This document shows positions 1 to 27,219 of a stretch of 64,000 bases of DNA, piece after piece. A program made the position numbers and the translations under genes. Position 1 is the stretch's first letter, and each line of letters starts with the position of its first letter. The notes beneath the pieces were generated by a model that was not told where the DNA came from, did no database searches, and worked only from the letters and a program-made list of their open reading frames with translations. Source of the stretch: Polyangium mundeleinium (lineage in GTDB: Bacteria > Myxococcota_A > Polyangia > Polyangiales > Polyangiaceae); the NCBI RefSeq assembly GCF_028369105.1, contig NZ_JAQNDO010000001.1, forward strand, positions 2,099,711-2,163,710, written 5' to 3'.

Positions 1-1842
1 CTCGTCGCGCCATCCAGGCTCCATCCGATCGCCGAGGGAACCCCCGGAGCCGTCGGAGAGGACCCGTTCGAGGCCGCTGACGCCCGAGAGCGCGGCGCGT
101 CGTTTCGGCGATCGCGCGCAGCCCGCGAGCGCGGCGAGGGCCTGCGTTCGCAGGGCGCGGCGGCGCTCGTCGGAGGGGCCGGCGTCGACGGCGCCCTCGG
201 AGAGGAAGGTGTCGATCACGTCGAGCGGCGAGTGCTTGTGCTCGTGCGCGTCGTTCGCGAGGAGCCACCGATCGACGGCTTCGAGCAGGGCCTCGTGGAC
301 CCCCGCAGGGCGCGCGGACGAGCGCGACGCGAGCTCGCGCAGGACACGCATGGGGTGGTCGGGGTGCGGGCTCTGGAGGCGGAGATCGTCGCGGCCGAGC
401 TGCCAGAGGAGGTCGGCGGCGCGCGGCAGGTGCGCGAGGTGCAGGCCCACGCGGCGCAGGATCGCGGGCAGCTCGTAGAGGACGGACGCGGCGGAGAAGA
501 GGGCGCCCGGGCCCCGCGTGGCCTCGGTGAGCGCAGGAGAACGGAGGACCGTCGAGGCGAGGTCGAGCATCGCGGCCGGGTGATCCGAGGAGAGCTCGCG
601 CAGGCTGGCGAGCAGGCGGCATCGATCCGCCGCAGAGGCTGCTTCGACGCTCTCGCGCACGTGGCGGAAGAGCGAGGCGACGATCTCGCCGGACGCGCCC
701 TCCGGCGTGGAGGGGCCGTCGAGTTCGCCGGCGTTGCGGATGAGCGGGACGATGGCCTGGGCGCCGAAGCGCGCTTCGAGCGCACGCACGCGCTCGTCGA
801 GCGAGCCCGTGAGCCCGCCCGTGGCGGAGGGGCCGACGAGCACGCGGTGGAGCGCGTGGTCCGAGAGGGCGCCCGGGACGACACGCGCGCCATGCGGGCC
901 ACGCTCGACGACGCCCGCGGCTTCGAGCGCGCGGAGCGCCGACACGAGATCACGGCGGCGGCAGCCGAGCAGATCGCCCGCGCCCTGGAGGAAGCGCTCG
1001 TCCGAGGTGCGCACGGGCGCGAGGAGCGCGACGAGCGCGAGGACGCCAGCGAGGAGCTTGGGGTCGCCCGCGGCGGCGGAGCGAAGGAGCAAGAGCTCAT
1101 GGCCCCGATCGAACGCGCACGCCGCGAGCTCGCCCTTGCCGAGCGCGACTGGATGGATGGCGCCTTCTTGCATGAGGCGGCCGGCCAGCGCGATCACGAA
1201 CGGATGTCCCTCGGCGAGCTCGGCGAGGCGCGCCCCATGCGCCTCCGCCTCTTCACCGAGCACGTGCCGCGCGGCCGCCTCGGCTTCGCTCGGCGAGAGC
1301 GCGCCAAGCTCGGGGAGCACGCGCACCACGTCCGACGAGAGCCCGACCTGCGCGAAGAGCGCCGAGAGGCGCGGCAGGCCTGCGGGGCGCGTCGTCAGGA
1401 TGAAGCGGACGTCGCGGCGATCGAGCGCCATGGGAAGGAGCGTGGCGGGCGCGGCTTTGCGGCCCGCGTCGTCGATCACGAGGAGGCACGGGCCGGGCGG
1501 CAGGCGCGTGGTGGGGGGCGCGCCGGCGACGGCGACGTCGGTCGCGAAGCGCAGCATGGTGCCGATCCGCTGCGCAGCGAGGGCGTCGGCGAGCGCGGAG
1601 AGCAGGCTCGTCTTGCCCGTGCCCGTGCGCCCGGGGAGCACGGCGACGCGCGCCGGGCCGCGGGCGCTGGCGAAGTCGACGAGCGCCGCGAGGATCTCGG
1701 CGCGCCCGCCGAAGGGCAGCGCTTCCTGGAAGGGGCGGCCCGCGGCGAGCGCGCCGCCTTCGAACTCGCTCGGGCCGAAGAGCGCCACACCGTGCTCGAC
1801 GTGGGCGTCCGGAGGAGTGGGGAAGCCGAGGGTCGTCTCCAT
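1..1842 (-). CDS. P-loop NTPase (AAA/STAND-like), 3' end beyond the window edge; not in the ORF track because the frame has no stop inside the window
   Basis: Hand translation of the minus strand from the ATG at 1842 gives METTLGFPTP...GRTGTGKTSLL (Walker A) and later CLLVIDDAG (Walker B-like). The frame stays open to position 1. It differs from the listed ORFs 216-1100, 1476-1943 and 1253-5044, which look like R/S/A-rich artifacts. Confidence 0.6.
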   Translation of the reverse strand, partial: METTLGFPTPPDAHVEHGVALFGPSEFEGGALAAGRPFQEALPFGGRAEILAALVDFASARGPARVAVLPGRTGTGKTSLLSALADALAAQRIGTMLRFATDVAVAGAPPTTRLPPGPCLLVIDDAGRKAAPATLLPMALDRRDVRFILTTRPAGLPRLSALFAQVGLSSDVVRVLPELGALSPSEAEAAARHVLGEEAEAHGARLAELAEGHPFVIALAGRLMQEGAIHPVALGKGELAACAFDRGHELLLLRSAAAGDPKLLAGVLALVALLAPVRTSDERFLQGAGDLLGCRRRDLVSALRALEAAGVVERGPHGARVVPGALSDHALHRVLVGPSATGGLTGSLDERVRALEARFGAQAIVPLIRNAGELDGPSTPEGASGEIVASLFRHVRESVEAASAADRCRLLASLRELSSDHPAAMLDLASTVLRSPALTEATRGPGALFSAASVLYELPAILRRVGLHLAHLPRAADLLWQLGRDDLRLQSPHPDHPMRVLRELASRSSARPAGVHEALLEAVDRWLLANDAHEHKHSPLDVIDTFLSEGAVDAGPSDERRRALRTQALAALAGCARSPKRRAALSGVSGLERVLSDGSGGSLGDRMEPGWRDE

Positions 1843-1963
1843 GGAAATCTGGCGCGCCGCGGGGCGAGCGCGCCAAGCCTACCACGGGGTCGGCGAGGGA
1901 CGGAGCGCCGAACCCTCGCCGCCGTGGCGTCGCGGCCGGGCAAAAGGTAGAAAGTAAGCTGCC

Positions 1964-3820
1964 ATGAGCAAGCGCCCGCCTTCCCCCACGGATCGCCCCT
2001 TCCGCGACGCTTTCCGGAGCTTCGCCGGTCGTGTGCGGCGGCGCTTGGCGCTCGAACGGATGCTCTCGGGCGCCGCGCTCGGGCTCGTGATCGGCGCGGG
2101 CGCGACCGCGGCGGCGTGGCAAACGCGGCACGGCGCGCTCCGGCCGTGGATGGCCGCGGGCGGCGCGCTCGGCGCGGCGGTTGGCGCGATGGTGGCCCGC
2201 CGCAAGCGCTGGCGCGACGAGGAGGTCGCGCTGTTCCTGGATGGACGCCTCGGCGGCAAGGAGTCGATCTCCACGGCGATCGAGCTCGATCGCGAGGACG
2301 AACGCGACGATCCGGCGCGCGCGGTGGTGCTCTCGCAGGCCACGACCGTGCTCGAAAAGGCGAACCCCAAGGACGCGCGTCCGCGGTTCGTTCGGGCCTA
2401 CCACCTCGCGATCCCGCTCGGCCTCGCGGCGATCGGCTACATGAGCCTGCTGCCGCTGCCCGCGCTCCCGCCGCCGCCTCCGCCGCCGCCCGGCGCCGAG
2501 CAGGTCAAGCTCGCGGACATCAAGGGGCTCGACAAGATCATCGACCTCGCGAACGCGAACGCGCGCGACGACGCCCAGCGCAAGCGGCTCGACAAGATCG
2601 CCGAGGACGCGAAGAAGCTCCGCGAAAAACTGCGCGACGGCATGGAGAAGCGCGAGGCGCAGGCCGAGATCGGCAAGCTCAAGGACGCGATCACGGCCGA
2701 GCGGCTCTCGCTCGGCGAGGGCGAGCAGCGCCAGGGGCTGGAGAGCGCGCTCGGCAAGCTCGCGGAGAACCCCGACCTCAAGGACGCGGCCAAGGCGCTC
2801 GGCGACAGGGATCTCGTCTCGTTCGACGACGCGATGGAGAACCTCGCGAACAAGCTCGAAAAAGAGGACCGCGAGCGCGCGAAGAAGACACTCGAAGAGG
2901 CCGCCGAGGCCGCCCGCAAGCAAAACGCGCCGGACGTGGCCAAGGCGCTCGAGGAGCAGAAGAAGCGCCTCGAAGAGATGGCCAAGAAGAACGAGAAGCT
3001 GAAGGAGCTCGGCAAGGCGATCGGCGAAGGCCTGTCCGAGGACGCGAAGGAAGCGCTGAAGGATCTCGACAGCGGCAAGGGCGGCGGCAAGGAGCAGCAG
3101 AAGCTCGCGGAGAAGCTCGAAGAGGCGCTCGGGAAGCTGACGCCCGAGGAGCGCAAGCGGCTCGCCGAGAACATGAAGAAGCGCGCCGCGGAGATGAGCG
3201 GCGAGGAGGCGCCGGGCGAGGGGCCGAGCAAGGAGCAGCTCGAAGATCTCGCCGAGGAGCTCGGATCCGAGGAGGGCCAGAAGCGGCTCGCCGAGGAGCT
3301 GAAGAAGATGGCCGAGCCCGAGCCCGAGGGCAGCGAGGAGGGCGAGCGGCAGAAGCGGCTCGAGGACGCGCAAAAGGGCATCGGCGAGGCCGAAGGGCAG
3401 CTCGGCGCGCCGATGCCGATGCCCGTGCCCGGACAGGGCGGCGGGAACAAGCCCGGGCAAGGGAACAAGGCCGGCCAGAAGCCGGGGGGGAACAACGGGA
3501 CCCCCGGCCCCGGCGGCAAGGACGAGGGGCAGCCGTACGCCGGTCACAGCGAGGGCGGCGGTCCGGGCGACCACAAGGGCCAGACCGGCGTGGTCGACGG
3601 TCCCGGCGTCAAATCCCGCGCGACCGGCCCGATCAACAAGGGCAAGCCGATGCCGGGGCTCGTCATGGGACGGACTTCGGGGCGCGCGGGTGACACGGCG
3701 AACATCCAGGGGACGGGCGCGCTCGGGCAAGCGGCGGCGGGGGAGCTCGGGGCGATCGAGCGGAGCGACGTGCCCGAGGAGTACCGCGAGCAGGTCGGGC
3801 GCTATTTCCAGCCCAAATGA
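1964..3820 (+). CDS. Membrane-anchored coiled-coil protein: two N-terminal TM helices, a poly-Pro stretch, a long K/E-rich coiled coil and a Gly/Pro-rich C-terminus
   Basis: ATG at 1964. Hydrophobic segments LSGAALGLVIGAGATAAAW and AAGGALGAAVGAMVA. Contains PPPPPPPPG and a long KE-rich heptad-like region. The stop lies 30 nt before the MoxR gene. Confidence 0.7.
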   Translation: MSKRPPSPTDRPFRDAFRSFAGRVRRRLALERMLSGAALGLVIGAGATAAAWQTRHGALRPWMAAGGALGAAVGAMVARRKRWRDEEVALFLDGRLGGKESISTAIELDREDERDDPARAVVLSQATTVLEKANPKDARPRFVRAYHLAIPLGLAAIGYMSLLPLPALPPPPPPPPGAEQVKLADIKGLDKIIDLANANARDDAQRKRLDKIAEDAKKLREKLRDGMEKREAQAEIGKLKDAITAERLSLGEGEQRQGLESALGKLAENPDLKDAAKALGDRDLVSFDDAMENLANKLEKEDRERAKKTLEEAAEAARKQNAPDVAKALEEQKKRLEEMAKKNEKLKELGKAIGEGLSEDAKEALKDLDSGKGGGKEQQKLAEKLEEALGKLTPEERKRLAENMKKRAAEMSGEEAPGEGPSKEQLEDLAEELGSEEGQKRLAEELKKMAEPEPEGSEEGERQKRLEDAQKGIGEAEGQLGAPMPMPVPGQGGGNKPGQGNKAGQKPGGNNGTPGPGGKDEGQPYAGHSEGGGPGDHKGQTGVVDGPGVKSRATGPINKGKPMPGLVMGRTSGRAGDTANIQGTGALGQAAAGELGAIERSDVPEEYREQVGRYFQPK

Positions 3821-3850
3821 CCGCCAGGCGCGGCTACGCTGCGCCTCCGC

Positions 3851-4876
3851 ATGACGACGACGGGCGACTTTCAGAAGAGGCTCGATCGGGCCCGCGAGGC
3901 GAGCGCGCGCCTCAAGGACGCGATCGGTCAGGTGATCGTGGGCCAGGGCGAGGTCGTGGAGCAGGCGCTCTGGGGTCTCGTGGCCGGCGGGCACGTGCTG
4001 CTCGAAGGCGCGCCGGGGCTCGGCAAGACGCTGCTCGTGCGCACGATCGCGAGCTGCCTCGACCTGAAATTTTCGCGCATCCAGTTCACGCCCGACCTCA
4101 TGCCGAGCGACGTGACGGGCACGAACATCCTCGTGACCTCGGCCGACGGCTCGCGGCACTTCGCCCTGCACAAGGGGCCGATCTTCGGTCAGGTGGTGCT
4201 CGCGGACGAGATCAACCGCGCCACGCCGAAGACGCAGAGCTCGCTGCTCGAAGCGATGCAGGAGCACGCGTGCACGATCGCCGGCGTGCGGCACGCGATG
4301 GAAGAGCCGTTCTTCGTGCTCGCCACGGAGAACCCGATCGAGATGGAAGGGACGTACCCGCTGCCCGAGGCGCAGCTCGATCGGTTTCTGCTCAAAGTGA
4401 TCGTGCCGAGCCCGACCGAGGACGAGATGACCGAGATCCTCACCCGCACGACGGGGCAACCGAAGGACGCGCCGCCGCGCGTGCTCGATCGAGACGAGGT
4501 GCTGGCGATCCGCTCGGCGTGCCGCGACGTGGCCGTGGCCGAGCCGATCATGCGCTTCGCCTCGCGCCTCGTCCGCGCGAGTGATCCGGCGACACAAGGT
4601 GCGCCCGACCTCGTGAAGCGCGCGATCCGCTACGGCGCGGGCGTGCGCGGCGGGCAGTCGCTCGTGCTGGCGGCCAAGGCCGTGAGCGTGCTCGAAGGCC
4701 GCGCGCACGTCTCGTTCGGCGACGTGCAGCGGGTCGCGAAGCCTGTGTTGCGCCACCGCCTGATCCGATCGTTCGAGGGCGAGGCCGACGGGGTGACGAC
4801 CGATCAGGTGGTCGACGCGCTCATCGAGAGCGTGCCCGCCCGTCCGGAGAACGTGGAGCAGGCGATCCGTCGATGA
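3851..4876 (+). CDS. MoxR-family AAA+ ATPase
   Basis: Walker A LLEGAPGLGKT and Walker B VLADEINRA, with a typical MoxR length of 341 aa. The stop overlaps the next start (ATGA). Confidence 0.9.
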   Translation: MTTTGDFQKRLDRAREASARLKDAIGQVIVGQGEVVEQALWGLVAGGHVLLEGAPGLGKTLLVRTIASCLDLKFSRIQFTPDLMPSDVTGTNILVTSADGSRHFALHKGPIFGQVVLADEINRATPKTQSSLLEAMQEHACTIAGVRHAMEEPFFVLATENPIEMEGTYPLPEAQLDRFLLKVIVPSPTEDEMTEILTRTTGQPKDAPPRVLDRDEVLAIRSACRDVAVAEPIMRFASRLVRASDPATQGAPDLVKRAIRYGAGVRGGQSLVLAAKAVSVLEGRAHVSFGDVQRVAKPVLRHRLIRSFEGEADGVTTDQVVDALIESVPARPENVEQAIRR

Positions 4877-6975
4877 GGCTCCGCGCGCTCTCGCTGGTCC
4901 CGATCCTCGCGCTCGCGCCGCTCGCGACGCACGCCGAGCCTGCACCCGTCCTCGCCGCCACCTCCATCGCGGAGGTGCCGCCGCCGGGGCGCGCGAGCGT
5001 GTCCTTCGAGGTCGCGCCGATCCTCGGCACGACCTCACCGACACCCGCGGGCTGGAGCGGGTTCATCGTGCGGCTCCAGAACAACGAGGCCAAGCCGCTG
5101 CGGGGCGAGGTCGAGGTCCTGAGCCGGCTGCACTCGGACCATATGCGCTTCCGCGCGACGGCGCCGTTCGTCGTCGGCGCGGGGACGAGCGTGGTCGTCC
5201 GGCTGCCGACACACGGCAGCGTGTACGGCGAGACGAGCGTCATCGCGCGGGACGACGCGGGCGTGGTGCTTGGCAGCCACACGACGGCCGTGACGAACAT
5301 GCAGGAGCTCTTCCTGCTCGACGTGAGCGAGACCTCGCGGCTGAAAGGCGCGCTGCACGACGCCGCGATCTCGCCGCTCTTCTCGCCGTGGGGCGGGTAC
5401 GGCGCGTACGGGACGGGGCCGCAGCTCAAGGTGGGCGCGCCGCGCTTCGATCCGGCGACGGGTGATCCGATCCTGCCCGATCGCGCCGCGCTGTATGCGC
5501 CCGCATCGGCCGTGCTCCTGCGCTCGGACACGCTCGTGAAGATCGGCGCGGCCGAGCTCGAAGCGCTGAGCGGCTACGTCCTCGCCGGCGGCACGCTCGC
5601 CGTGGCGCTCGCGCGCCCCGAGGATCTCCGGAGCTCCATCCTCGCCGCGTTCGTCGGCGGCGAGATCACGCAGACGTCGCCGCACTCCGAGACGCTCCGG
5701 GAGCTCGTGTTGCCCGCGCCACCCTCGAACGCCACGAAGTCGATCCCGTTCGCCGAGACGCCGGCCGAGGAGGTCAGCAAGACGCTCGTCGGTTTCTCCG
5801 GGGGCAACCTGCACGGCAGCCGCTACGGGGCCTCCGCGACGTACGGGCTCGGCGAGGTTCACCTGCTCGGCTTTGATCCGACGCGCAAGCCCGCCGTGGA
5901 CGACCCCTGGGTGCAGGCGCGTGTCCTCGATCTGACGCGCAGGGCCTTCGACCGGAAGAGCTCGATCGTCTACCGGCAGGGCGGCTCGCCCGGCACCGTG
6001 GACCTCGATCGTGTGCGGCAGGAGCTCGATCCGAACGAGAGCTCGCGCTGGGGGATCGCGGTCGCCGCGATCCTGCTCATCGCCTACGCGGTCGCCGCCG
6101 GGCCGGTGAACTTCACGATGCACGCGAACAAGGGCAAACCTCTGCGCGCGCTCGTGTGGCTGCCGATCCTCTCGGCGATCGCGTTCTTCGCCGTGGTGCT
6201 CATCGGCCTCTTCGCGAAGGGCCTCACGGGGCGGTCGCGCCACCTCACGCTCGTCGAGGCGGGCGCGGGCATGACGAAGGGCACGGCGCGGCGGTGGCGT
6301 GGCTTCTTCACGCCGCGATCGAAGGATCTCACGGTTCGCACGAGCGACGGTTCGAGCGTGGTGACGACCGCGGTCGTGGCTGCGCCCGCGACGATCGACG
6401 ATCACATGCTCGTCGATCGCGACGGCGCGCGCCTCGTGGATCTCGCGATCTTGCCCTGGCAAACCGTGGTCGTGCGCGAGGACGGGTTCGCCGACGTCGG
6501 CGAGGGGATCTCGATCGTGCACGAGGGCGAGAAGGACACGGCCGTGACGAACCGGAGCGGCCACGATTTGCGGGCGGCGCTCCTCGTCCTGCCGGGCCTC
6601 CAGCCGCGGTATTTCCCGATGATCAAGGACGGCGAGCGGGTGCTCGCGAGCGCGGGCAAGGACTTGAAGACGGTGTCCGCGGGGACGACCTGGATCCGGC
6701 AGGTGAGCGGCACGCGGCGCGCGGGGACGCTCGATCTGCATCCGCTCAGCGCGGTCTTCGTGCGCCCGCTCATCGAGCCCGATGCGCCCGGCCTCGCCGA
6801 GGCGTGGCTCGCCGTCGAGCAGAGCTCGGGCGGGCTCGTCGACTGGTTCCCCGAGGACGTGCCGGTGCTGCTCGGTCAGCTCGACGGCGGCGAGGGCAAG
6901 ACGTCGGACGCGGGCCTCAAGCTCGAACGGGATCGGCTGCTCGTGCGGATCGTCGGATACGGAGGTCGGCCGTGA
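4873..6975 (+). CDS. Secreted/membrane protein of unknown function: Sec signal peptide, a periplasmic domain, two central TM helices and a C-terminal domain. Possibly a GldG/ABC-auxiliary-like component.
   Basis: N-terminus MRLRALSLVPILALAPLATHA. TM segments around residues 395-445. Translationally coupled on both sides (ATGA upstream, GTGA downstream). Confidence 0.65.
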   Translation: MRLRALSLVPILALAPLATHAEPAPVLAATSIAEVPPPGRASVSFEVAPILGTTSPTPAGWSGFIVRLQNNEAKPLRGEVEVLSRLHSDHMRFRATAPFVVGAGTSVVVRLPTHGSVYGETSVIARDDAGVVLGSHTTAVTNMQELFLLDVSETSRLKGALHDAAISPLFSPWGGYGAYGTGPQLKVGAPRFDPATGDPILPDRAALYAPASAVLLRSDTLVKIGAAELEALSGYVLAGGTLAVALARPEDLRSSILAAFVGGEITQTSPHSETLRELVLPAPPSNATKSIPFAETPAEEVSKTLVGFSGGNLHGSRYGASATYGLGEVHLLGFDPTRKPAVDDPWVQARVLDLTRRAFDRKSSIVYRQGGSPGTVDLDRVRQELDPNESSRWGIAVAAILLIAYAVAAGPVNFTMHANKGKPLRALVWLPILSAIAFFAVVLIGLFAKGLTGRSRHLTLVEAGAGMTKGTARRWRGFFTPRSKDLTVRTSDGSSVVTTAVVAAPATIDDHMLVDRDGARLVDLAILPWQTVVVREDGFADVGEGISIVHEGEKDTAVTNRSGHDLRAALLVLPGLQPRYFPMIKDGERVLASAGKDLKTVSAGTTWIRQVSGTRRAGTLDLHPLSAVFVRPLIEPDAPGLAEAWLAVEQSSGGLVDWFPEDVPVLLGQLDGGEGKTSDAGLKLERDRLLVRIVGYGGRP

Positions 6976-8213
6976 GCGAGCCCGTCGCGACGCCCGAGAC
7001 CTGGGAGCGCTCGCCCGCCACCGCGGCCCCGGAGCCGCCTGCGCTCATTACGTCGGCGCCACCGACGATCCGCGTGCGCCACCTCTGGCACCGCTTCGCG
7101 AACCGCGACGTTCTGCGCGACGTGACCTTCGATGTCGGCCCGGGCGAGATCTTCGGCTTCATCGGGCCGAACGGCGCGGGAAAGACCACGACGATCCGCG
7201 TGATGGCGACGCTGCTCGAACCGATGGCCGGGCGCGTGGAGATCGACGGGATCGACGTCACGCTCGACCCCGACGCCGTGCGCAAGGTGATCGGCTACAT
7301 GCCCGATCACGCCGGCGTCTACGATCGCATCACGGTGCGCGAGTACCTGGAGTTCTTCGCGGACTCGTTTCGCGTGCCCTCGATCAGCGTGGTCGACGCG
7401 GTCCTCGAACTGACGGACCTCGGCAAGCTGCAGGATCGGCTCGTCGCCGAGATGTCGAAGGGCATGAAGCAGCGGCTTCAGCTCGCGCGCATCCTCCTGC
7501 ACGACCCGAAGGTGCTCATCCTCGACGAACCGGCGAGTGATCTCGATCCACGCGCCCGCATCGAGATCCGTGATCTCTTGCTGGAGCTGCGTGGCCTCGG
7601 GAAGACGATCTTCCTCTCGTCGCACATCCTCACGGAGCTGAGCGACGTGTGCACCTCGATCGGCATCCTTGAACGCGGCCGTCTCGTCGTCGCAGGGCCG
7701 ATCCACGAGATCTCGGCGCGGCTCGAAGCGATCCGCGCAGCCGAGGCCCACGGTCATGCGCCGCCGCCGCGGTACGTGCCGCCGGGCGTGCGCGCGCTCG
7801 TGCCCGCACAAGCCGCGCAAGCCGCGCCGGCTTCGCCCCAGGCCGCGGGCGTGGTGCCACCTGCGCCCGTTGCCGGCGCCGCCGTGCCCGCGACCGATCC
7901 GAGCGCGAGCGCGGCCCCGCCGCAGCCGCAACCGCCGCAGCCGATCCCGCAAGCGCCGAGCGTCCGTCGGGTGAAGCTGCGCGTCCTCGGCAACCCCGAG
8001 GCGGCTGCGTACTTCCTGCGCGGCGGGCCTGGGATCGTCGAGGTCCAGGTCATGGGCGGCCTCGTGCACGTCGGCTACACGGGCACGGAGACGAAGATCG
8101 CGGAGATGGTGACCCACCTCGTGCACCGCAACATCGGCATCGTGGGCGTGGAGCCGGAGAGGAACGAGCTCGAGCGCATCTTCCTCGAAGTCACGCGCGG
8201 AGACGTCCAATGA
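6972..8213 (+). CDS. ABC transporter ATP-binding protein with a Pro/Ala-rich linker and a C-terminal extension
   Basis: GTG start at 6972 preceded by GGAGG. Walker A GPNGAGKTT, signature LSKGMKQR, Walker B ILILDEP and an H-loop SSHIL. The listed 6156-8213 ORF is a 5' over-extension that overlaps the previous gene in another frame. Confidence 0.85.
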   Translation: MSEPVATPETWERSPATAAPEPPALITSAPPTIRVRHLWHRFANRDVLRDVTFDVGPGEIFGFIGPNGAGKTTTIRVMATLLEPMAGRVEIDGIDVTLDPDAVRKVIGYMPDHAGVYDRITVREYLEFFADSFRVPSISVVDAVLELTDLGKLQDRLVAEMSKGMKQRLQLARILLHDPKVLILDEPASDLDPRARIEIRDLLLELRGLGKTIFLSSHILTELSDVCTSIGILERGRLVVAGPIHEISARLEAIRAAEAHGHAPPPRYVPPGVRALVPAQAAQAAPASPQAAGVVPPAPVAGAAVPATDPSASAAPPQPQPPQPIPQAPSVRRVKLRVLGNPEAAAYFLRGGPGIVEVQVMGGLVHVGYTGTETKIAEMVTHLVHRNIGIVGVEPERNELERIFLEVTRGDVQ

Positions 8214-9928
8214 GCGCGCAGACCGGAACGGCAAGGGCCGCGGGCACCTCGCTCCTGCATCGCCTGAAGGACGATCCGAACCCGATCTGGATCCGCGAGC
8301 TGCGCCAGTCCGCGCGGCTCGTCCGCACGCCGATCATCCTCTGCGTGCTCTCGATCCTGGCCACGCTGGCGATCGCCTCGATCGGCGGCCTCGTCTCGAT
8401 CAACGAGAGCCCCGCGACCACGGGCTACGTCCTCTTCCAGGTCTTCTTCTCGCTCGCGTATTTCGTGGTCACGTTCGTTGGACCCGCGGTCGCGGCGAAC
8501 GCGATCGCCTCGGAGCGCGAGGGCCGCACGTGGGAAGCCGTGATCCTCACGGGTCTCCGCCCCGCGGTGATCGCGCGCGGAAAATTCCTCGCCGCGTACA
8601 CGTCGATCAGCATGTACGTGGTGATGCTCGCGCCCGTCGGCGCGCTGCCGTTCCTCTTCGGCGGTGTCACCGCGACGGAGACGATCGTCGCGTTCGGGTT
8701 CCTGTTCCTCATCGCGGCGCTCGCGGTGGCTTTCGGGCTCGCGGTCAGCTCGAAGATGAACAGCCTGCGCGCCGCGCTCGTGGTCACGTTGATCTGCGCG
8801 GTGATCGCCTCGCTCAACGTCTACGGCTGGTTCGGCGTGGGCCTCTCGGTTCCCGCGCACCACGCCTGGCCCGGCGTGCCGGACGGCCCGCCCGTCTGGC
8901 TGCCGACGGCGTACGCGCGCGCGCCCTTTGATCTCACGTACGTCCTCTGCTTGATCGTCCTGCCGATCGTCGCGACGGGTTTGCCGGCGTGGTTCCTCTA
9001 CGAGGTCACGGTCGCGAACCTCACGAGCATCACGGACGATCGCTCGACGGGCCTCAAGCGCTGGTTCCTCGTGGCCGCGCCGGTGTTCGCGCTCTGCTCG
9101 GCCGCGCCCGTCGCCGCCGTCCCCGCGCACGATCGCCTGGAGGTCTCGATCGCGGGCATCTGCATGCTTCTCGTGTTCCTGATGATCTCGGTCTACATCT
9201 TCCTCGGTGACTCGCTCGGGCCCTCGCGGCGCGTGCGGCTCCACTGGGATCGGCAGGGCGTGAGCCCGTTCGCGCGGCTGCTCGGGCCGGGCATCATCGG
9301 CACGTCGATGATGCAGCTCGGCGGGGCCGCGGTCGCATTCTTGATGCCGGTCGCGGCTGGGATCGTGGCCGTGATGGACGACGTCGACGCCGTGCAGAAG
9401 ATCCAGCAGATCCTCGTCGTCGCGCTCTACGCGGCCTCGTTTTATCTGTTCTCCGTGGGGCTCGGCGCGCTCCTGCGGGCGCGGCTCAGCACGACACTGC
9501 TCTCGCGTGTCTTGCTCCTCGCGGTGCATTTCCTCGTCACCGTGGGGCCGTGGATCGTCGCGGCGATCGCGGGCCTCTTCGCGTCGGCCTCGGGCCGAGG
9601 CGCGCTCATCGTGGCCGCGCCGTCGCCGATCTACGCCTTCGTCGCGGTCGGCGCGCTGGACTCGACCGGCGAGGAGCTGCTCGTCGTGGCTTCGGTGGCG
9701 GCCTCGGTGGTGTGGGGTCTGCTCGGGATCCTGTTCCTCACGCTCGCGCGAGGACGCGTGAGGCGCGTCATCGCGGCGCACGAGGTCGCGCTCGGCGAGA
9801 GTGATCGGATCCTCGCCGAGGAGGACGCCGCGGCGGTGCGGGCGATGGAGGAAGCGGCGGCAGCGACGGCAGCGCCCCCGGCGGCCGACGCGCCTGCGGT
9901 CGCGCCCGAGCCCGAGCCTGCGGGCTGA
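8210..9928 (+). CDS. ABC-2 type transporter permease, polytopic with about 10 or more TM helices
   Basis: ATGA overlap with the ATPase gene. Highly hydrophobic 572-aa product with many predicted TM segments. Confidence 0.8.
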   Translation: MSAQTGTARAAGTSLLHRLKDDPNPIWIRELRQSARLVRTPIILCVLSILATLAIASIGGLVSINESPATTGYVLFQVFFSLAYFVVTFVGPAVAANAIASEREGRTWEAVILTGLRPAVIARGKFLAAYTSISMYVVMLAPVGALPFLFGGVTATETIVAFGFLFLIAALAVAFGLAVSSKMNSLRAALVVTLICAVIASLNVYGWFGVGLSVPAHHAWPGVPDGPPVWLPTAYARAPFDLTYVLCLIVLPIVATGLPAWFLYEVTVANLTSITDDRSTGLKRWFLVAAPVFALCSAAPVAAVPAHDRLEVSIAGICMLLVFLMISVYIFLGDSLGPSRRVRLHWDRQGVSPFARLLGPGIIGTSMMQLGGAAVAFLMPVAAGIVAVMDDVDAVQKIQQILVVALYAASFYLFSVGLGALLRARLSTTLLSRVLLLAVHFLVTVGPWIVAAIAGLFASASGRGALIVAAPSPIYAFVAVGALDSTGEELLVVASVAASVVWGLLGILFLTLARGRVRRVIAAHEVALGESDRILAEEDAAAVRAMEEAAAATAAPPAADAPAVAPEPEPAG

Positions 9929-9948: not shown

Positions 9949-11973
9949 TCAAAGCTCACTGCAAAGCGAATCTCCGGGCTGGCACAGCGACCGCTTGCGG
10001 GGCGGCGGCTTCCTGGGGGGTGGCTTGGCCACTGTCTCGGGCGTGAACTCGACGAGTTCGAGCAGGTTCACGAAGCGGGCTCTGTGCCCGCCGGGATCCG
10101 CGCCGAGGTTTTTCTTGGCCATCGTCACGACATCCGCGAGCGTCACGTTTCCCTTGTAGGGCGAATCCCGCAGGAGCAGGCCGAACGCCGCCACGGCCGC
10201 GGCGAACTGGAGATCCGTGCGCACCTCTTGCTGATACCATTCGTCGATGAGCGGCACCTCGATCTCGCGGCTCGTTTGTCCCGAGGCATCCTTGTAACGG
10301 ACCCGCAGCGTGAGGAGGTACGGCGGGGGCGGCATGTCGGAGCTCCCCGAGGTGCGGAGCCTGGGTTCGATCTCGTAAAGCGCCGTCACCGCCTGCCCGG
10401 CATAAAGATCGACCGGGCCTTTCCAGGCATCCAGAAATTCGCGCTCCGGGCCCGTCCGATCCTCGTTGCCGATCAGCCGGAACGACCGCACGTGCGACGG
10501 ATCGAAATCGACCTCGACCCGCACGTCCCTCGCGATCGGCGTGCGCGCCCCCATCGCCTCGTCGACCAGCTCCTTGCGCGCGTCGTCCGGGCTCGCGATC
10601 TGCGCGAAATGGCCTTTCCCCTCCGCGGCCAGGCGCTTCAAGGTTTCGACGGCCGGGACATCCATCCGACCGAAGCCCAGCGTCGTCAGGGAAATGCCCG
10701 TCGCCGATTTTTCCCGGATCGACGCCGCGAGCCGGCTCGGGTCCTCCGCCGTGAAATGGTCGTCCGTCGCCAGGAAGACCCGGTTCACGCCGCCTGCGAC
10801 GAAATGCGCCTGCGCCTCCTGGAAGGCTCGCTCGATGGAAGCGCTCGTGTCCACGGTCGCGCCCGGCTTGAAGTTGTCGATGGCGGTGAGGATCCGGGGT
10901 TTGTCGTTGCCCGGCGTCGACGGCAGGTAAGGCTCCTGCGAGCTGCCTCCGTATTCGACGAGCGTCAGCCGATCTTGCGCGTCGAGCCGCGACACCAGCC
11001 TGCGCAGGGCGGCCTGGAGCAGCAGCAGTTTGTCCGGCTCATAGGTGAAGTCGGAGGATTTGTCGATCACGAAGACGAGGTTTGCCTGGGGGCGGACCGA
11101 CGGATCGAGCGGCGCTGTTTTCAGCGCGAGGCGCACGAGCCTGTGCGAATGGTTCCACGGCGCCGCGCCGACCTCGGCCCGGGCGGCGAGCGGCGCGTCT
11201 CCGATCGGGGGCGGGTCTTCGTAGGCGAACGCATTGACGAGCTCGTCGACGCGCACCACGTCCTTCGGCGGCCGCCGCCCGGCCTCCTGGATGTACCGCT
11301 CGACGAGCGAATACGAGGCCGTGTCCACGTCGAGCGGGAACGTCGAGCGTGCGATGCTCGTCGTGTAGACGAACGGGTTCTCGTCGGCGCTCGGCTTCGA
11401 GCGCGCGGTCAACCTGCGGGGCTTCGGGATTTGCGAAGGGACCCCGCTGCCCTGATGCGCCCGCTCCTCCTGGAGCATTTTCAGGGCCTCTCGCCGCGTC
11501 GCATCGTCGATCTTCGTGTCGTCCTTCGGGCGCGGGGCCGTCGTCTTTTTCTGGCCCTTCTCGTTCTGCTTCTGCTGCGCCTCGAACGCCGCAAAGTCTT
11601 TCCTCGCTTGCTCGGCCGCGAGCTGGGCATTGCGGCGCGCGACCATCACCCCGACCGGAATGGACACGAGCGCGACGGCCGCCGCTGCGAGCAACACCGG
11701 GCGCAGGAGCCGCCTTCGGAGCGAAGCCACCTTGGGGGTTTCCTTCTCGCGCGTAGCCTCCTCCAGCGCCTTTCGTTGCTCCGCCGGAAGCTCCTTCGGC
11801 GCGCGCTCTGCGAGGCCTTCGCGGAGCATGTCCGCCGTCATGCGCAGGGCGTCGATCTCCGCGCGGATCTCCAGATCGCCGTCGACGGCCGCCTCGATTT
11901 CGCGTGATGCCGCCTCGTCGAGCTCGCCGAGCACGTACGAGAGCAGGCGCGGATCGTCTTTCGAGAGCGTCAT
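9949..11973 (-). CDS. Anti-sigma factor / von Willebrand factor A domain fusion protein (YfbK-like): N-terminal anti-sigma region, one TM helix and a periplasmic VWA region
   Basis: Start MTLSKDDPRLLSYVLGELD (anti-sigma zf-HC2-like N-terminus). TM LLRPVLLAAAAVALVSIPVGVMVA. VWA-like LVFVIDKSSD. ATGA overlap with the upstream ECF sigma gene. The listed ORF 9949-12363 is 5' over-extended. Confidence 0.8.
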   Translation of the reverse strand: MTLSKDDPRLLSYVLGELDEAASREIEAAVDGDLEIRAEIDALRMTADMLREGLAERAPKELPAEQRKALEEATREKETPKVASLRRRLLRPVLLAAAAVALVSIPVGVMVARRNAQLAAEQARKDFAAFEAQQKQNEKGQKKTTAPRPKDDTKIDDATRREALKMLQEERAHQGSGVPSQIPKPRRLTARSKPSADENPFVYTTSIARSTFPLDVDTASYSLVERYIQEAGRRPPKDVVRVDELVNAFAYEDPPPIGDAPLAARAEVGAAPWNHSHRLVRLALKTAPLDPSVRPQANLVFVIDKSSDFTYEPDKLLLLQAALRRLVSRLDAQDRLTLVEYGGSSQEPYLPSTPGNDKPRILTAIDNFKPGATVDTSASIERAFQEAQAHFVAGGVNRVFLATDDHFTAEDPSRLAASIREKSATGISLTTLGFGRMDVPAVETLKRLAAEGKGHFAQIASPDDARKELVDEAMGARTPIARDVRVEVDFDPSHVRSFRLIGNEDRTGPEREFLDAWKGPVDLYAGQAVTALYEIEPRLRTSGSSDMPPPPYLLTLRVRYKDASGQTSREIEVPLIDEWYQQEVRTDLQFAAAVAAFGLLLRDSPYKGNVTLADVVTMAKKNLGADPGGHRARFVNLLELVEFTPETVAKPPPRKPPPRKRSLCQPGDSLCSEL

Positions 11974-12497
11974 CGGTTCCTCCTTTCGGCTTCGCGGTCC
12001 TTCTTCTCGACCTGCTCGCGCAGCGCGCGCAGCGCCGTATGCAACAGAAACCCCACGTTCGAGACGCTCGTCCCGAGCACCTCCGCGATTTCCTGGTAGC
12101 TCAGGTCGCCGCTGAATTTGAGCAGGACCGCCTCGCGTTGCCGCTCCGGCAGGGTATCGAGCGCGCCGAGGACGCGGCGCATCGCCTCCCGGCGCTCGAG
12201 GGCCTCCGCGGGCCCGGGTAGATTGTTCGGCATGACCTCGTCCATCTCCGCCACGGGCTCGACGTGTCGTTTGTCGCGCCGCACATCGAGGGCCCGGTTC
12301 CGGCAGACCGTGAAGAGCCAGGCCCGGAGGTGCGGCTCCACCGCCGCCCGGTCCTGGTTGCACAAGCGCAGGAACGTGTCCTGCACCACGTCGGCCGCCT
12401 GAGCGGATCCCACGATGGCCGAGGCGTAACGGAGCAAAGGGGCTTCGTAGCGCGAGAGCGCGAGAAGGACCCAGTGGCTCGTCGGTTCGCTCGGCAT
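11970..12497 (-). CDS. ECF-family RNA polymerase sigma-70 factor
   Basis: Sigma70 region 2 and region 4 motifs (VQDTFLRL, LPERQREAVLLKFSGDLSYQEIAEVLG). Co-transcribed and overlapping with the anti-sigma gene. Start chosen at MPSEPTSH (ATG at 12497); the listed ORF reaches 12653. Confidence 0.8.
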   Translation of the reverse strand: MPSEPTSHWVLLALSRYEAPLLRYASAIVGSAQAADVVQDTFLRLCNQDRAAVEPHLRAWLFTVCRNRALDVRRDKRHVEPVAEMDEVMPNNLPGPAEALERREAMRRVLGALDTLPERQREAVLLKFSGDLSYQEIAEVLGTSVSNVGFLLHTALRALREQVEKKDREAERRNR

Positions 12498-12627
12498 GGG
12501 CGCGAAAGAGCGTGTCGTTCGCTCGAAGAACGGGGGGGCGGGAGGTTTCTTAGAGAAAAAAGGAACGAGCTCGGGTCTTTGTCTCGGGCGGCTTCTCGCG
12601 GGGCGCGGATCGGGGTAGGGGGCCGTC

Positions 12628-13407
12628 ATGTCCAACGCCTCCCCGGCTCGCAAGACGCGCGCGGCGCAGTGGGCCTACGTGATCCTGGGCCTCCTCGTGC
12701 TGATCTTCGTCGTGCTCGGCGTGATGATCAAGGTGTACAAGGTCCCGTCCGGGGCGATGTTACCCACGCTCGTGCCCGGCGACCACGTCTCCGCGACGCG
12801 GGGTGGCGAGGTGCATCGCGGCGAGGTGATCGTCTTTCCGTTCCCCGAGAACCCGGAGCAGCTCTTCATGAAGCGGGTGATCGGGATGCCGGGGGACGAG
12901 ATCCAGTTCGTGGACGGGCGGCCCATCATCAACGGCTTTCGCGTCCCGCAGTGTCGCGTGGGCCGATACGATTGGGAGGGGCAGAGGCACGAGCTCTTCC
13001 TCGAATGGATCGGCGATCACGTGTACGGCGTTTTGCTCGACGGACCGGTCGACGGGGGGACGTGCGAGAAGGATATCGATTGCAGCGGGATGCAATCGTG
13101 CCGGGGCGGGATTTGCGGGATGTTGCAAGGACCGTGGCGTGTGCCTCCGGGGGAGGTGTTCGTCATCGGCGACAACCGGATGAACAGCCACGACTCGCGG
13201 AGCTGGAAGGGCGGAATCGGAAGCGGTGTGCCCATTTCCACGGTGATCGGGCACGTGGGGAGGATCGTGATGGGCGGTTTTTCCGGCAGGACGGGCACGC
13301 CCATGGACGGGCCGCCCGTCCTGCCGGCCGGCGCGGCGTCGCTCGGGCCTGCGATGGAAAAGTGCTTGAAGGAAAAACCCGCCGTGACGACGCCGCCCGC
13401 GCGTTAA
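12628..13407 (+). CDS. lepB: Signal peptidase I
   Basis: N-terminal TM anchor, catalytic Ser box SGAMLPTL, Lys box KRVIGMPGD and GDNRMNSHDSR. Confidence 0.9.
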   Translation: MSNASPARKTRAAQWAYVILGLLVLIFVVLGVMIKVYKVPSGAMLPTLVPGDHVSATRGGEVHRGEVIVFPFPENPEQLFMKRVIGMPGDEIQFVDGRPIINGFRVPQCRVGRYDWEGQRHELFLEWIGDHVYGVLLDGPVDGGTCEKDIDCSGMQSCRGGICGMLQGPWRVPPGEVFVIGDNRMNSHDSRSWKGGIGSGVPISTVIGHVGRIVMGGFSGRTGTPMDGPPVLPAGAASLGPAMEKCLKEKPAVTTPPAR

Positions 13408-19693: not shown

Positions 19694-19793
19694 GCGGGCG
19701 CGCTGGGCGGCAGGACAGGGCAGAACCGGGCAGGAACCGGGCGGGCCGGGCGGTGGACAGGAGCGCCGCGCGGAAGGATGATGCGCGACGCGA

Positions 19794-22394
19794 ATGGCGC
19801 AGCGGTTCCATCACGAGGCCTTGCTGCGGGCGCGCCTCGAGCTCGAGCTCACCCAGGAGGAGCTCGCGGCCTCGGTCGGCGTGGACGTGCGCACGTATCG
19901 CCGGTACGAATCCGGCGAGGTCAACGAGGGCGGCTTTTCGGTCCGGCAACCCGCCCGGCGAAAGCTCCTCGAAAAGCTCTCCGCCGAGCTCGGGATCGCC
20001 GCGGCCGATCTCGTGATCGAGGCCGATCCCGCGCCCGCCCCGGCGCCCCTCGCGCCCGCGCCGAGGCTCTTTTCGCCCGAGCACGTGCACACGCTCCAGC
20101 GCGCGCCGCATTTCGTGGGGCGCGAGGACATCCTGGAGGAGCTTTGGACGTGGGCGTCGGCGCCCGAGAAAGGCAAGGGGCCGGGCGTGGTCGCGCTCGT
20201 GGGCGTGGGCGGCGCGGGGAAGACAGCCATCGCCGAGCGGCTCGTCACGCGAATCGGGGATGCGCCGCGGCGCGGCGGGCTCTTCGTGTGGAGTTTTTAC
20301 GACGACGAACGAACCGAGGCGTTTTTGGCCCACGCCGTGCGGTATTTCGCGGGGGCGGAGCCGCAAGCCGGGGAGCGGCTGGAGACGCTCTTGCTGGCGC
20401 TCGGGAGCGGGCCGCCGCACCTCGTCGTGCTCGATGGGCTGGAGACCGTGCAGGCCGCGGGCGGGGCCTCACGTGCGCACGGCGAGCTCGAAGATCCGCT
20501 GCTCCGGCGGCTGCTCGTGGCGCTCGCGCGGGGGCTCGGAGCGGCGCGCGCGCTCGTCACGTCGAGGTTTTTGCTGGGCGATCTCGCGCCCTGGGCGGAC
20601 GCGGGCGCGCGCACCGTGAAGCTCGGGCCGCTCTCGCCGATCGACGCCGAGCGGTTGCTCCGGTCGTGGGGCGCGGACGGGGATGGGGAGGCGCTCGCGC
20701 GCGTCGTTCATGCCTCGGGCGGGCATGCGCTCTCGCTCGCGGTCGCGGGCTCGTATGCGGGGGCGTTTCTCGGGGGCGATTTGCGTCCGCTCGATCCGCT
20801 CGATCTCGCCGAGGCCGCGCGTGACGATCCGCTGGCCCGGCGCCTCGCGCGGGTCCTCTCGGCGTACGCGGCCGCGTTGCCCGACGCCGAGCGGGATCTC
20901 CTCGCGCGCCTCTCCGTGCTTTCGTCCGGCGCCGACGAGGACGCGCTGCTCGCGCTTGCATCGGCCTCCCCGCGTGTCGCGGGCGCGCTCGCGGGGGCCT
21001 CCACGGAGGGCGTTCGCCGCGCGCTCGCCCGCCTCGAACGGCTCGGGCTCGTCTTCCGCGCCGGGGGTGAGCCGCCGCGGTGGTCGTCGCACCCGTTCGT
21101 CCGGGACCATTTCCGCTCGTTGGTCCCGGTCTCGCCCTCGGCCGTGCAGGCGGCGATGACCGCGCCGTCCGAGGGCACGTTGATCTTCGCGCCGCGGCAA
21201 AAACCCCGGGACCGCGGCCGCCTCGACGCCGTCGAGGAGGTGATCCGGGCTTTGAACGACGCGGGCCAGCCGACCGAGGCATATCGGGTGTACTCGCAAA
21301 CCCTGGGCGCCTTTTCACACCTCGGGCTTGTCCTCGGTGAAATGAGCCGCGGAGCACGGATTTTACGATTGTTTGGCGAGACAACCGATCCGGCCTCGCC
21401 CGCCGCGTCGCTTGCGTTGGGCTTTCGTCTTGCATTGCTCTACGAGCGCGGGCTTTATGCGGGGGCGCTCGGCGACCTCACGTTTGCCCGGCGCTCCTAC
21501 GAGGCGCACAACACGCTGGTCGAAGGGACACCCGAGGTGTCTCACCTCGTGACGGGATTGCGTACCTTGGCGTACACCGAGCGGCTCGCGGGGGCGCTTT
21601 CGGCGGCGCGGGCGCACGTGTCGCAGTCGCTCGTGATGGCGGAGTCGGCCGGGCTCGGCACGCACATCGCCCGCGGAATCGCGCTCTCCGCGTCGATCGC
21701 GCACGATTTCGGGGACATCGATGCTGCGCGCGCGGGGTTTTCGCGGCTCGTGGCGATGGGGGACGCGCGGGTCGCGCGGCGCGGTTTATGGGAGGCGGAG
21801 CATTTGCTCGCGCTCGGGCAGCGCGAGGAGGCCGTCCAGATGACCGAGGCGAACGTGGCCGCCTGTGAGCGCCTCGGCTGGGCCGGGCACGCGGCGCAGG
21901 GGCAGGTGCTGCTCGGGCTCGCCGTGGTGGACGAGGATCCGGCGGAGGCGGAGCGACGTCTCCACGCGGCGCGGGCGTGGGTCGCTGTCTCCGGGGAGGT
22001 GGAAATGGCGGCGCGCGTGCACGAGCTCACGGCGCGGATCGCGCTTTCGCGGGGGGCGTTTTTCGAGGCGGCGCGGGAGGCGCTCGCGGGCGAGCAGCTC
22101 GCGGAGGCGTGTGGGCTCGGGCTGTTCCGGACGCGGCTCCTCGCGCTCGGGCTCGAAATCGCGCACGCGCGGGGCGACGAGGCGGCGATGGGGCGGGCCA
22201 AGGACGTGCAGCGCCAAGCCCTTGGCGAAGATACCTGGGGGCGCGCAGACGTGTTGCATTGGGCTGGGCTCTGTCATTCGAGCGTGGGCGAAGCGGAGCT
22301 TGGCAAGCGGTACCTCGAAGAGGCGCTCGTTTTGCGGGAGCGGATCGGCCATCCCGGGTGCGAGGCGACGCGCGAGGAGGTGTGTCGGCGCTGA
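19794..22394 (+). CDS. STAND-class regulator: N-terminal HTH (XRE-like), NB-ARC/AAA NTPase and C-terminal TPR-like repeats
   Basis: HTH LTQEELAASVGVDVRTYRRYESG. Walker A LVGVGGAGKTAIA and Walker B HLVVLDGLE. Long Ala/Leu-rich helical repeat C-terminus. Confidence 0.85.
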   Translation: MAQRFHHEALLRARLELELTQEELAASVGVDVRTYRRYESGEVNEGGFSVRQPARRKLLEKLSAELGIAAADLVIEADPAPAPAPLAPAPRLFSPEHVHTLQRAPHFVGREDILEELWTWASAPEKGKGPGVVALVGVGGAGKTAIAERLVTRIGDAPRRGGLFVWSFYDDERTEAFLAHAVRYFAGAEPQAGERLETLLLALGSGPPHLVVLDGLETVQAAGGASRAHGELEDPLLRRLLVALARGLGAARALVTSRFLLGDLAPWADAGARTVKLGPLSPIDAERLLRSWGADGDGEALARVVHASGGHALSLAVAGSYAGAFLGGDLRPLDPLDLAEAARDDPLARRLARVLSAYAAALPDAERDLLARLSVLSSGADEDALLALASASPRVAGALAGASTEGVRRALARLERLGLVFRAGGEPPRWSSHPFVRDHFRSLVPVSPSAVQAAMTAPSEGTLIFAPRQKPRDRGRLDAVEEVIRALNDAGQPTEAYRVYSQTLGAFSHLGLVLGEMSRGARILRLFGETTDPASPAASLALGFRLALLYERGLYAGALGDLTFARRSYEAHNTLVEGTPEVSHLVTGLRTLAYTERLAGALSAARAHVSQSLVMAESAGLGTHIARGIALSASIAHDFGDIDAARAGFSRLVAMGDARVARRGLWEAEHLLALGQREEAVQMTEANVAACERLGWAGHAAQGQVLLGLAVVDEDPAEAERRLHAARAWVAVSGEVEMAARVHELTARIALSRGAFFEAAREALAGEQLAEACGLGLFRTRLLALGLEIAHARGDEAAMGRAKDVQRQALGEDTWGRADVLHWAGLCHSSVGEAELGKRYLEEALVLRERIGHPGCEATREEVCRR

Positions 22395-27008: not shown

Positions 27009-27219
27009 CGCCCCCTCCGTCGCAAGAAGCCGCCCGACGAGCACAGCGTAAGCCCAAAAATTCAACGACGGAGGATGGTAGATGTTGTTACCGCTACTCT
27101 TCGCGCTTGGTCGTTCTTGAGACGCCATGGCGCGGTGATCGAGAACACTTCACGCCCGGGGCCGGTTGCGGGGCGCGACGCTCTCGACGCCGCGGCGGCG
27201 CTGGGCCAGAAGGGCTCGG

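Follow-up and report, generated by a model that had tools for sequence, protein, structure and literature searches.

Why should the gene for a MoxR AAA+ ATPase be followed by those of an ATP-binding cassette (ABC) exporter, when a DUF58 gene and two von Willebrand factor A (VWA) genes stand without a MoxR of their own some 17 kb away? The question is raised by a stretch of 64,000 nucleotides of Polyangium mundeleinium (contig NZ_JAQNDO010000001.1, positions 2,099,711 to 2,163,710; hereafter the window, with a G+C content of ~70%), in which five same-strand genes, G1 to G5, occupy positions 1964-9928 of the plus strand (Table 1). An initial annotation described them as a module encoding a coiled-coil membrane protein (G1), MoxR (G2), a 700-aa secreted or membrane protein (G3), an ABC ATPase (G4) and an ABC-2 permease (G5), in which the place of the usual DUF58/VWA partners of MoxR is taken by an ABC exporter, and took the DUF58-VWA-VWA trio for a separate orphan. 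The inventory was right: the five genes are present on one strand, the trio at ~27166-33251 is real, and no second MoxR was found in the 64-kb window. Their separation was not, as orthologues of the trio directly follow the permease gene in a sister clade, and the two anomalies are therefore best read as halves of one system. Module and trio quite probably belong together, and the five genes are probably the proximal half of a Polyangiaceae-specific envelope system, a variant of the MRP-type MoxR-DUF58-VWA ('Bat-like') operon.

Conservation of the module and its link to the trio

A HMMER scan recovered G3 relatives in 607 clusters at 50% identity, nearly all of them full length, and 127 stretches of species-representative genomes encode such a relative. 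A separate homologue search with a more diverse profile brought up much the same close relatives. Gene order was scored by tblastn of the five proteins against the best 80 of these 127 loci, to which the synteny counts refer, and all 80 belong to Polyangiaceae, Polyangia or unclassified Myxococcota/'delta proteobacterium' metagenome-assembled genomes. MoxR lies directly upstream of G3 in 73 of the 74 evaluable loci, the ABC ATPase directly downstream of G3 in all 75, and the permease next after the ATPase in 67 out of 67; this order persists across the 80 loci down to 37% G3 identity. G1 directly precedes MoxR in 34 of 64 loci, and is located elsewhere in the locus in 20 of the 64. Judged from these gene orders, the module is an ancient operon specific to one family of myxobacteria from soil, and G1 is slightly less tightly bound to it. 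The neighbourhood check proposed with the initial annotation was thus answered by a synteny that is conserved in more than one genus, for a module that had not previously been annotated.

Orthologues of the trio come directly after the permease, on the same strand and often overlapping it, in 19 of 59 evaluable genome loci, with identities of 54-68% for DUF58, 45-64% for the BatA-like VWA protein and 54-64% for the large VWA protein (VWA3), whose gene is the last of the contiguous clusters. A reciprocal search of metagenome contigs, started from the DUF58 protein of the window, found the permease directly upstream in ~20 contigs; over genome and metagenome loci, the DUF58 orthologues placed right after the permease show 52-73% identity. 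This search recovers the whole eight- to nine-gene cluster. Five contigs (L095, L105, L107, L112 and L119) span the series G1-MoxR-G3-ATPase-permease-DUF58, and four of the five run on through the BatA-like gene and VWA3. The full order of the proposed system, as kept in one clade, would be G1, MoxR, G3, ATPase, permease, DUF58, an optional DUF1415 gene, the BatA-like VWA gene and the VWA/GATase1-like gene. Many contiguous clusters carry the DUF1415 gene (230-248 aa; for example L058 14204-14896 and L105 8389-9135) as an insert that separates DUF58 from the BatA-like gene; L059, L078 and the trio of the window lack it.

In a midpoint-rooted neighbour-joining tree of G3, built with no outgroup, the loci form a 'contiguous' and a 'split' clade with no scored exception, and the trio follows the permease in every evaluable locus of the contiguous clade. 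The split clade comprises Polyangium, Sorangium, Minicystis, Byssovorax and Chondromyces, in which the trio is not found within 5 kb of the module, save in one locus (L038) with DUF58 1.2 kb downstream of the permease. In these five genera the last three genes of the proposed system would thus stand apart from the others, by ~17 kb in the window. One metagenome contig (L090, 3867-7001) has ~3.1 kb between permease and DUF58; this insert and that of L038 (~1.2 kb) may represent intermediate states of the operon split. From the contiguous gene orders, the ABC exporter is best described as extending the canonical MoxR-DUF58-VWA set without replacing any of it, and what looks like a 'MoxR without partners' or a 'DUF58-VWA without MoxR' can be an artefact that arises when an operon is split. 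No description of a MoxR-ABC-2-DUF58 operon turned up in the literature searched, which proves nothing by itself; to the extent of that literature, module and trio constitute a previously undescribed variant of the MoxR-DUF58-VWA system.

Could the module instead be a stand-alone MoxR-assisted ABC exporter, and the trio an unrelated orphan served by some other MoxR? The trio does lie beyond 5 kb from the module both in the window and across the Polyangium/Sorangium clade, and the ~17 kb between the two halves of the window are occupied by unrelated genes, namely an extracytoplasmic function (ECF) sigma factor/anti-sigma-VWA pair, a signal peptidase, a NADAR protein and a Ser/Thr kinase, and also code for a 2-oxoglutarate oxygenase, a helix-turn-helix (HTH)-AAA regulator, a beta-lactamase-family protein and a 992-aa Cys-rich protein. 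Yet the contiguity of trio orthologues with the permease extends across the sister clade, and the reciprocal DUF58 search agrees with it. Moreover, no MoxR stands beside the trio here or in the Polyangium-like contigs L083-L086 (78-96% identity; their 0.4-7 kb of available upstream sequence contain no MoxR and no permease), and G2 is itself a canonical AAA_3 MoxR nearest to the structure 2r44. A stand-alone exporter is, on balance, improbable. More distant DUF58 genes (L124 and L128, 30-32% identity) have a MoxR directly upstream, in textbook order. Two points nevertheless count against a single system: in the split clade the trio could be served by a different MoxR, encoded at some other place in the 13-Mb genome, and direct contact between MoxR and G3 is unlikely because the cytoplasmic part of G3 is a 13-residue loop only.

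The encoded proteins

The assignment of G2 to MoxR was confirmed, and its domains place it in the canonical, MRP-like class of MoxR AAA+ ATPases. It matches AAA_3 with 206 bits (E 2e-61; Pfam cut-off 27) and AAA_lid_2 with 58 bits, carries a Walker A motif GAPGLGKT and a Walker B motif VVLADE, and has 2r44 as its nearest solved structure (E 4e-73), while its match to bpMoxR (PF20030), at 43 bits, is well under that to AAA_3. Full-length matches in related loci show 65-99% identity. PMC12067865, citing Snider & Houry 2006, takes the companionship of a DUF58 gene and of vWA partners as what defines the MRP subfamily of MoxR. G2 has the domains and Walker motifs of this type as well as the association with DUF58 and vWA genes, which lie 17 kb apart here and are contiguous in the sister clade. 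Minicystis rosea (CP016211; L002 2620-8845) encodes a second, divergent MoxR with 39% identity to G2, placed immediately upstream of the G1 homologue. This MoxR is followed in turn by a 385-aa protein that matches no Pfam family and by a transglutaminase of TgpA type (TgpA_N, Transglut_core, DUF4129), so that two MoxR systems adjoin one another in this genome.

The ABC ATPase was also correctly recognized, and the permease is probably of ABC-2 type. G4 matches ABC_tran with 108 bits (E 6e-31) and shows the motifs GPNGAGKT, MSKGM, VLILDE and SSH. Its best NCBIfam model is GldA (TIGR03522), with 208.8 bits against an equivalog cut-off of 402.6, and the score is nearly equalled by that to drrA (TIGR01188; 205.8 bits, cut-off 312). 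A Pro/Ala-rich linker precedes the tail, which has a weak DrrA1-3_C-like match (E 0.023). By these matches G4 is an ABC ATPase of the DrrA/GldA class. At the Q-loop position (window 7230-7260, residues ~103-112) the protein reads IGYMPDHAGVY, which is kept in at least 90% of 64 aligned sequences; its Asp-His would stand in place of the Gln usual in ABC ATPases.

G5 has ~12-13 hydrophobic or transmembrane segments, and its ABC-2 matches all lie below threshold: residues 26-209 match ABC2_membrane_3 at 26.4-28.4 bits (cut-off 31.6) and ABC2_membrane_2 at 26.4 bits (cut-off 27.2). Orthologues in Sorangium and Minicystis have precomputed ABC2_membrane_3 matches with better scores, and G5 carries EREGRTWEA, similar to the conserved ExExGTxE motif. 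Its best NCBIfam model is GldF (TIGR03518), at 26.8 bits over residues 70-199 against a cut-off of 288.5. The C-terminal half has no family match in Pfam or NCBIfam. An internal duplication of the two halves was considered and discarded, as no homology is detectable between them (hhalign probability 0.3%). The N-terminal half is thus a probable ABC-2 type domain and the C-terminal half a separate, family-less membrane domain.

G3 and G1, the two large proteins, had been listed as being of unknown function, and both indeed lie outside any Pfam or NCBIfam family; among the matches listed, the entries are named 'hypothetical protein', save for one evidently spurious UniRef label. Whether whole or cut into separate domains, G3 gave no usable match to Pfam and NCBIfam. 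Among the families suggested for checking with the initial annotation, GldG/ABC_transp_aux (PF09822, TIGR03521) had no match for the separate G3 domains at E <= 10, nor in 24 members of the G3 family against Pfam/NCBIfam at E <= 1; DUF4350 (PF14258) had none for G3 itself and was found only in three of 24 relatives (best E 2.2e-4), although the modelled fold of G3 agrees with it; and DUF4175/TIGR02302 had none in G1, its parts or 16 of its orthologues. A profile of 24 G3 relatives found no significant match among PDB sequences.

An AlphaFold model of G3, built on a 24-sequence alignment reaching 27% identity, has a predicted local distance difference test score (pLDDT) of 87.7 and a predicted template modelling score of 0.86; the model made from 16 close homologues is poor (pLDDT 53.5). 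The former yields the domains listed in Table 1, among which the signal peptide and the central transmembrane hairpin bear out the earlier description of a secreted or membrane protein. With the signal peptide cleaved and this hairpin in the membrane, the four globular domains would all face the periplasm, leaving only ~13 residues in the cytoplasm. At the fold level, matches were obtained to ThuA-like/class I glutamine amidotransferase (GATase)-like proteins (1t0b, 2gk3, 3rht), the GH42 trimerisation domain and the IFT52 N-terminal (GIFT) domain, with 10-17% identity; they are provisionally assigned to residues 184-345, since no other part of G3 agrees with them in size and type. Foldseek of the model against PDB returned generic Ig-like matches only, and hhalign of the G3 profile with VWA3 gave a weak, non-significant match of a '...L..YV..GG.L' motif (probability 13%). 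G3 lacks any cysteine, and amidotransferase chemistry is therefore excluded. Compared with the non-catalytic ThuA-like/class I GATase-like domains, that of G3 differs in being predicted to be periplasmic and embedded in a multidomain membrane protein. In its modelled fold, G3 resembles a GldG-type accessory subunit, outside the GldG family. The most conserved part of G3 is the hairpin with its flanks, which suggests intramembrane docking, most plausibly on G5.

The scored candidates include 533 relatives of the 618-aa G1 with E <= 0.001. The N-terminus of G1 is basic (10 K/R within 32 aa), and hydrophobic segments occupy residues 33-51, ~62-78 and 148-166, with a charged loop at 79-147 that is conserved in the orthologue alignment. 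Beyond the transmembrane part follow a PPPPPPPP tract, a 286-aa helical region of which 58% is E/K/A/L, a G/P-rich tract and a C-terminus with the segment PEEYREQVGRYF, invariant among orthologues. These features match the coiled-coil membrane protein initially described. The whole protein, its N- and C-terminal parts and 16 orthologues had no family match in Pfam and NCBIfam. Hydrophobicity and charge counts, read by the positive-inside rule, would place the long helical part in the periplasm, in a TolA-like layout. In Sorangium (L001 19785-21647; L015-L046), a G1 homologue is located on the opposite strand ~4.7 kb past the end of the permease gene, with a Ser/Thr kinase gene and two unannotated genes in between, and the homologues of L072 and L076 are found 3.5-5 kb upstream of MoxR.

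Each protein of the trio carries a DxSxS motif. The probable start of VWA3, GTG 30108, gives a GTGA overlap with the BatA-like gene; a second motif, DRSRS, present in a longer open reading frame (ORF) beginning at 29967, lies upstream of this start.

Relation to known systems and a possible mechanism

MoxR-DUF58-VWA operons are among the most widespread bacterial clusters for which a mechanism is lacking. Bat-type function is still unresolved after Leptospira knock-outs and Borrelia topology work (PMC3557215, PMC5700661, PMC12067865). With the Bat/MRP operons (Bacteroides Bat, Borrelia BB0172-BB0176, Leptospira bat, mycobacterial moxR1) the Polyangiaceae cluster shares an AAA_3 MoxR, DUF58, a BatA_N plus VWA protein with DxSxS and another large VWA protein, whose genes lie together in the sister clade. 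It departs from them in that a probable ABC-2 exporter, a 700-aa GIFT/ThuA-like accessory and a 618-aa coiled-coil anchor are encoded around MoxR as well as between it and DUF58, and in that the cluster of Polyangium is split in two. Tetratricopeptide-repeat genes of BatC/BatE type were not seen among the cluster genes scanned, nor was a BatD-type gene, at which no test was aimed.

A second parallel comes from archaea, in which MoxR, vWA and the GldG-like DUF4350 (arCOG01314) are predicted to form a secretion or membrane-remodelling complex, and DUF4350 and GldG have been linked to the GATase1/ThuA/GIFT structural class (Makarova, Galperin & Koonin 2015, PMC5898192). Both systems pair MoxR and DUF58/vWA with a signal-peptide-bearing, membrane-anchored protein that has an extracytoplasmic domain of flavodoxin/GATase1-like fold, related to GldG, and that is found in company with Ig-like envelope proteins. 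They differ in that no ABC transporter is described for the archaeal neighbourhoods (PMC5898192) and that the archaeal DUF4350 protein has a single C-terminal transmembrane segment, whereas G3 has a central hairpin; moreover, G3 itself does not match the DUF4350 model, and only three of its 24 relatives do (best E 2e-4).

The third comparison, with GldAFG, had already been proposed as an analogy, and holds as resemblance and not as family membership. Each comprises an ATPase of the DrrA class, a permease (in the module, probably of ABC-2 type) and an accessory membrane protein whose GIFT/GATase1-like domain would face the periplasm; no NCBIfam models score higher for G4 and G5 than those of GldA and GldF, and the fold of G3 is ThuA/GIFT/DUF4350-like. 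However, the module fails the GldA, GldF and GldG cut-offs, G5 (572 aa, ~12-13 segments) departs from the GldF (TIGR03518) architecture of ~240 aa and six transmembrane segments by an extra, unrelated membrane domain, the architecture of G3 differs, and the Polyangiaceae system is coupled to MoxR. Such a coupling is not known for gldAFG. Might the module still be the orthologue of the Bacteroidota gliding transporter GldA/GldF/GldG, sitting by chance beside a MoxR? Polyangiaceae glide, the top NCBIfam models of G4 and G5 are those of GldA and GldF, and G3 contains a GIFT/ThuA-like fold domain; but the scores are far under the equivalog cut-offs (208.8 vs 402.6 and 26.8 vs 288.5), drrA scores as high as GldA for G4, neither G3 nor 23 relatives match GldG/ABC_transp_aux, and the central hairpin and four periplasmic domains of G3, like the extra membrane domain of G5, are unlike the architectures of GldG and GldF. 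Orthology with the gliding transporter is therefore very unlikely.

It is equally hard to credit that the genes belong with the MoxR-vWA systems of biological conflict (anti-phage or kin-discrimination) in which multicellular bacteria are enriched and which are described in PMC7159879, for although bpMoxR (PF20030) matches G2 with 43 bits, a STAND-NTPase-like gene lies upstream and the host is a multicellular myxobacterium, AAA_3 (206 bits) far exceeds bpMoxR, no cluster protein has a beta-propeller, VMAP or effector domain, PADLOC gives generic P-loop matches only and no defence-system assignment, the STAND neighbour is kept within Polyangium only, and the family-wide synteny is housekeeping-like.

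How would a system of MoxR, exporter and trio work? The specific picture that follows is tentative. Two G4 ATPases and the G5 permease would make up an ABC-2 type exporter, its domain identity being computed and its stoichiometry assumed. G3 would dock on it by means of its transmembrane hairpin, as GldG is thought to do for GldAF, and display its non-catalytic ThuA/GIFT-like and Ig-like domains in the periplasm, which G1, with its transmembrane segments, proline tract, charged helix and conserved tip, would span as a TolA-like anchor or tether. From what is known of the families, the cytoplasmic MoxR and its DUF58 adaptor may use ATP to assemble or remodel this complex, including the membrane VWA proteins that bear metal ion-dependent adhesion sites. 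Rather than pumping out solutes, such a complex would export or assemble some component of the envelope or cell surface.

Experiments place the VWA domain of the BatA-like BB0173 in the periplasm (PMC5700661), which leaves unexplained how a cytoplasmic MoxR acts on such proteins. A rather speculative answer is that the ABC-2 exporter encoded between MoxR and DUF58 is the missing transmembrane link of Bat-type systems, through which MoxR could act from the cytoplasm on VWA domains in the periplasm. MoxR/DUF58 and the ABC ATPase would then belong to one trans-envelope machine, delivering to or energising the VWA/GIFT proteins and the periplasm-spanning coiled-coil. If this were true, the Polyangiaceae cluster would be the first genetic handle on MoxR action on periplasmic VWA domains, and on what the Bat and DUF4350-MoxR systems build. 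The variant joins a MoxR-DUF58-VWA set, an ABC-2 exporter and an accessory of GldG-like fold in one operon, and ties together two formerly separate associations, the GldAFG-type ABC systems and the DUF4350-MoxR-vWA systems; it supports the view that such systems serve to export envelope material or to assemble it, and not to 'sense oxygen', and it assigns a context to two orphan families, those of G1 and G3. If module and trio are one system, disrupting either the MoxR-ABC half or the distant DUF58-VWA half should lead to a common phenotype, for example in Sorangium or Chondromyces, which are genetically tractable.

Gene layout and neighbouring genes

Genes were called on ORF maps and codon-position G+C (Table 1). 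Translational coupling by ATGA/GTGA overlaps had been claimed for all five genes of the module, and it stands at three of the four junctions, where 4-nt overlaps are formed by ATGA at G2/G3 (4873-4876), GTGA at G3/G4 (6972-6975) and ATGA at G4/G5 (8210-8213). At the first junction, the stop of G1 and the ATG of MoxR at 3851 are separated by a 30-nt gap, with no overlap. An upstream ATG at 3817, in 'AAATGA', was rejected as the MoxR start: its frame differs from that of MoxR, and it belongs to a 255-aa GC-rich artefact ORF.

Table 1. Features of the module, of the G3 protein and of the DUF58-VWA trio (nucleotide positions are those of the window).
Feature	Position	Strand	Description or basis
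Presumed promoter region of the module	1879-1963		divergent intergenic region between the STAND-NTPase-like gene and the G1 ATG at 1964
G1	1964-3820	+	618 aa
G2 (MoxR)	3851-4876	+	341 aa
G3	4873-6975	+	700 aa
G4 (ABC ATPase)	6972-8213	+	413 aa, GTG start
G5 (permease)	8210-9928	+	572 aa
G3, Sec signal peptide	residues 1-21		sequence/AlphaFold model
G3, Ig-like beta-sandwich	residues 43-151		AlphaFold model
G3, class-I-GATase-like alpha/beta domain	residues 184-345		AlphaFold model
G3, two-helix transmembrane hairpin	residues 387-419 + 423-449		AlphaFold model
G3, second beta-sandwich	residues 454-541		AlphaFold model
G3, alpha+beta domain	residues 546-694		AlphaFold model
DUF58 protein, predicted MoxR adaptor	27166-28116 (start TTG 27166 or ATG 27220)	+	DUF58 E 9e-42, DTSAS motif
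BatA-like membrane VWA protein	28117-30111	+	BatA_N double-transmembrane domain + VWA, DASAS motif
VWA3, large VWA protein with GATase1_like	30108-33251	+	VWA_2 + GATase1_like (PF07090), DISGS motif

A sigma-70 consensus scan of the region upstream of G1 gave no promoter-like site, a consensus that says little for a myxobacterium, and a terminator consensus scan gave 6 terminator-like matches (3.0 ± 2.0 expected), only inside coding sequence. The module is bounded upstream by the divergent, minus-strand STAND-NTPase-like gene (1-1878) and downstream by a convergent, minus-strand YfbK-like VWA gene (9949-11961); the STAND-like, YfbK-like and S26 peptidase neighbours are conserved within Polyangium only.

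The window contains two STAND/AAA_16-type NTPase genes, one at 1-1878 (minus strand), cut by the window edge and kept beside the module within Polyangium only, and another at 19782-22394 (plus strand) with an N-terminal HTH_3. The gene at 9949-11961 encodes 670 aa with an anti-sigma-like N-terminus and vWF_A, VWA and YfbK_C domains. Together with an ECF-type sigma factor gene that precedes it (11970-12653, minus strand; Sigma70_r2/r4), it forms a third VWA-bearing gene set of the window, with Polyangium-only conservation. The 992-aa ORF at 24150-27128 (minus strand) has a very high third-position G+C and, apart from a weak match to a Dictyostelium Cys-rich repeat, no annotation; a distance of 38 nt separates its end from the TTG start codon of DUF58.

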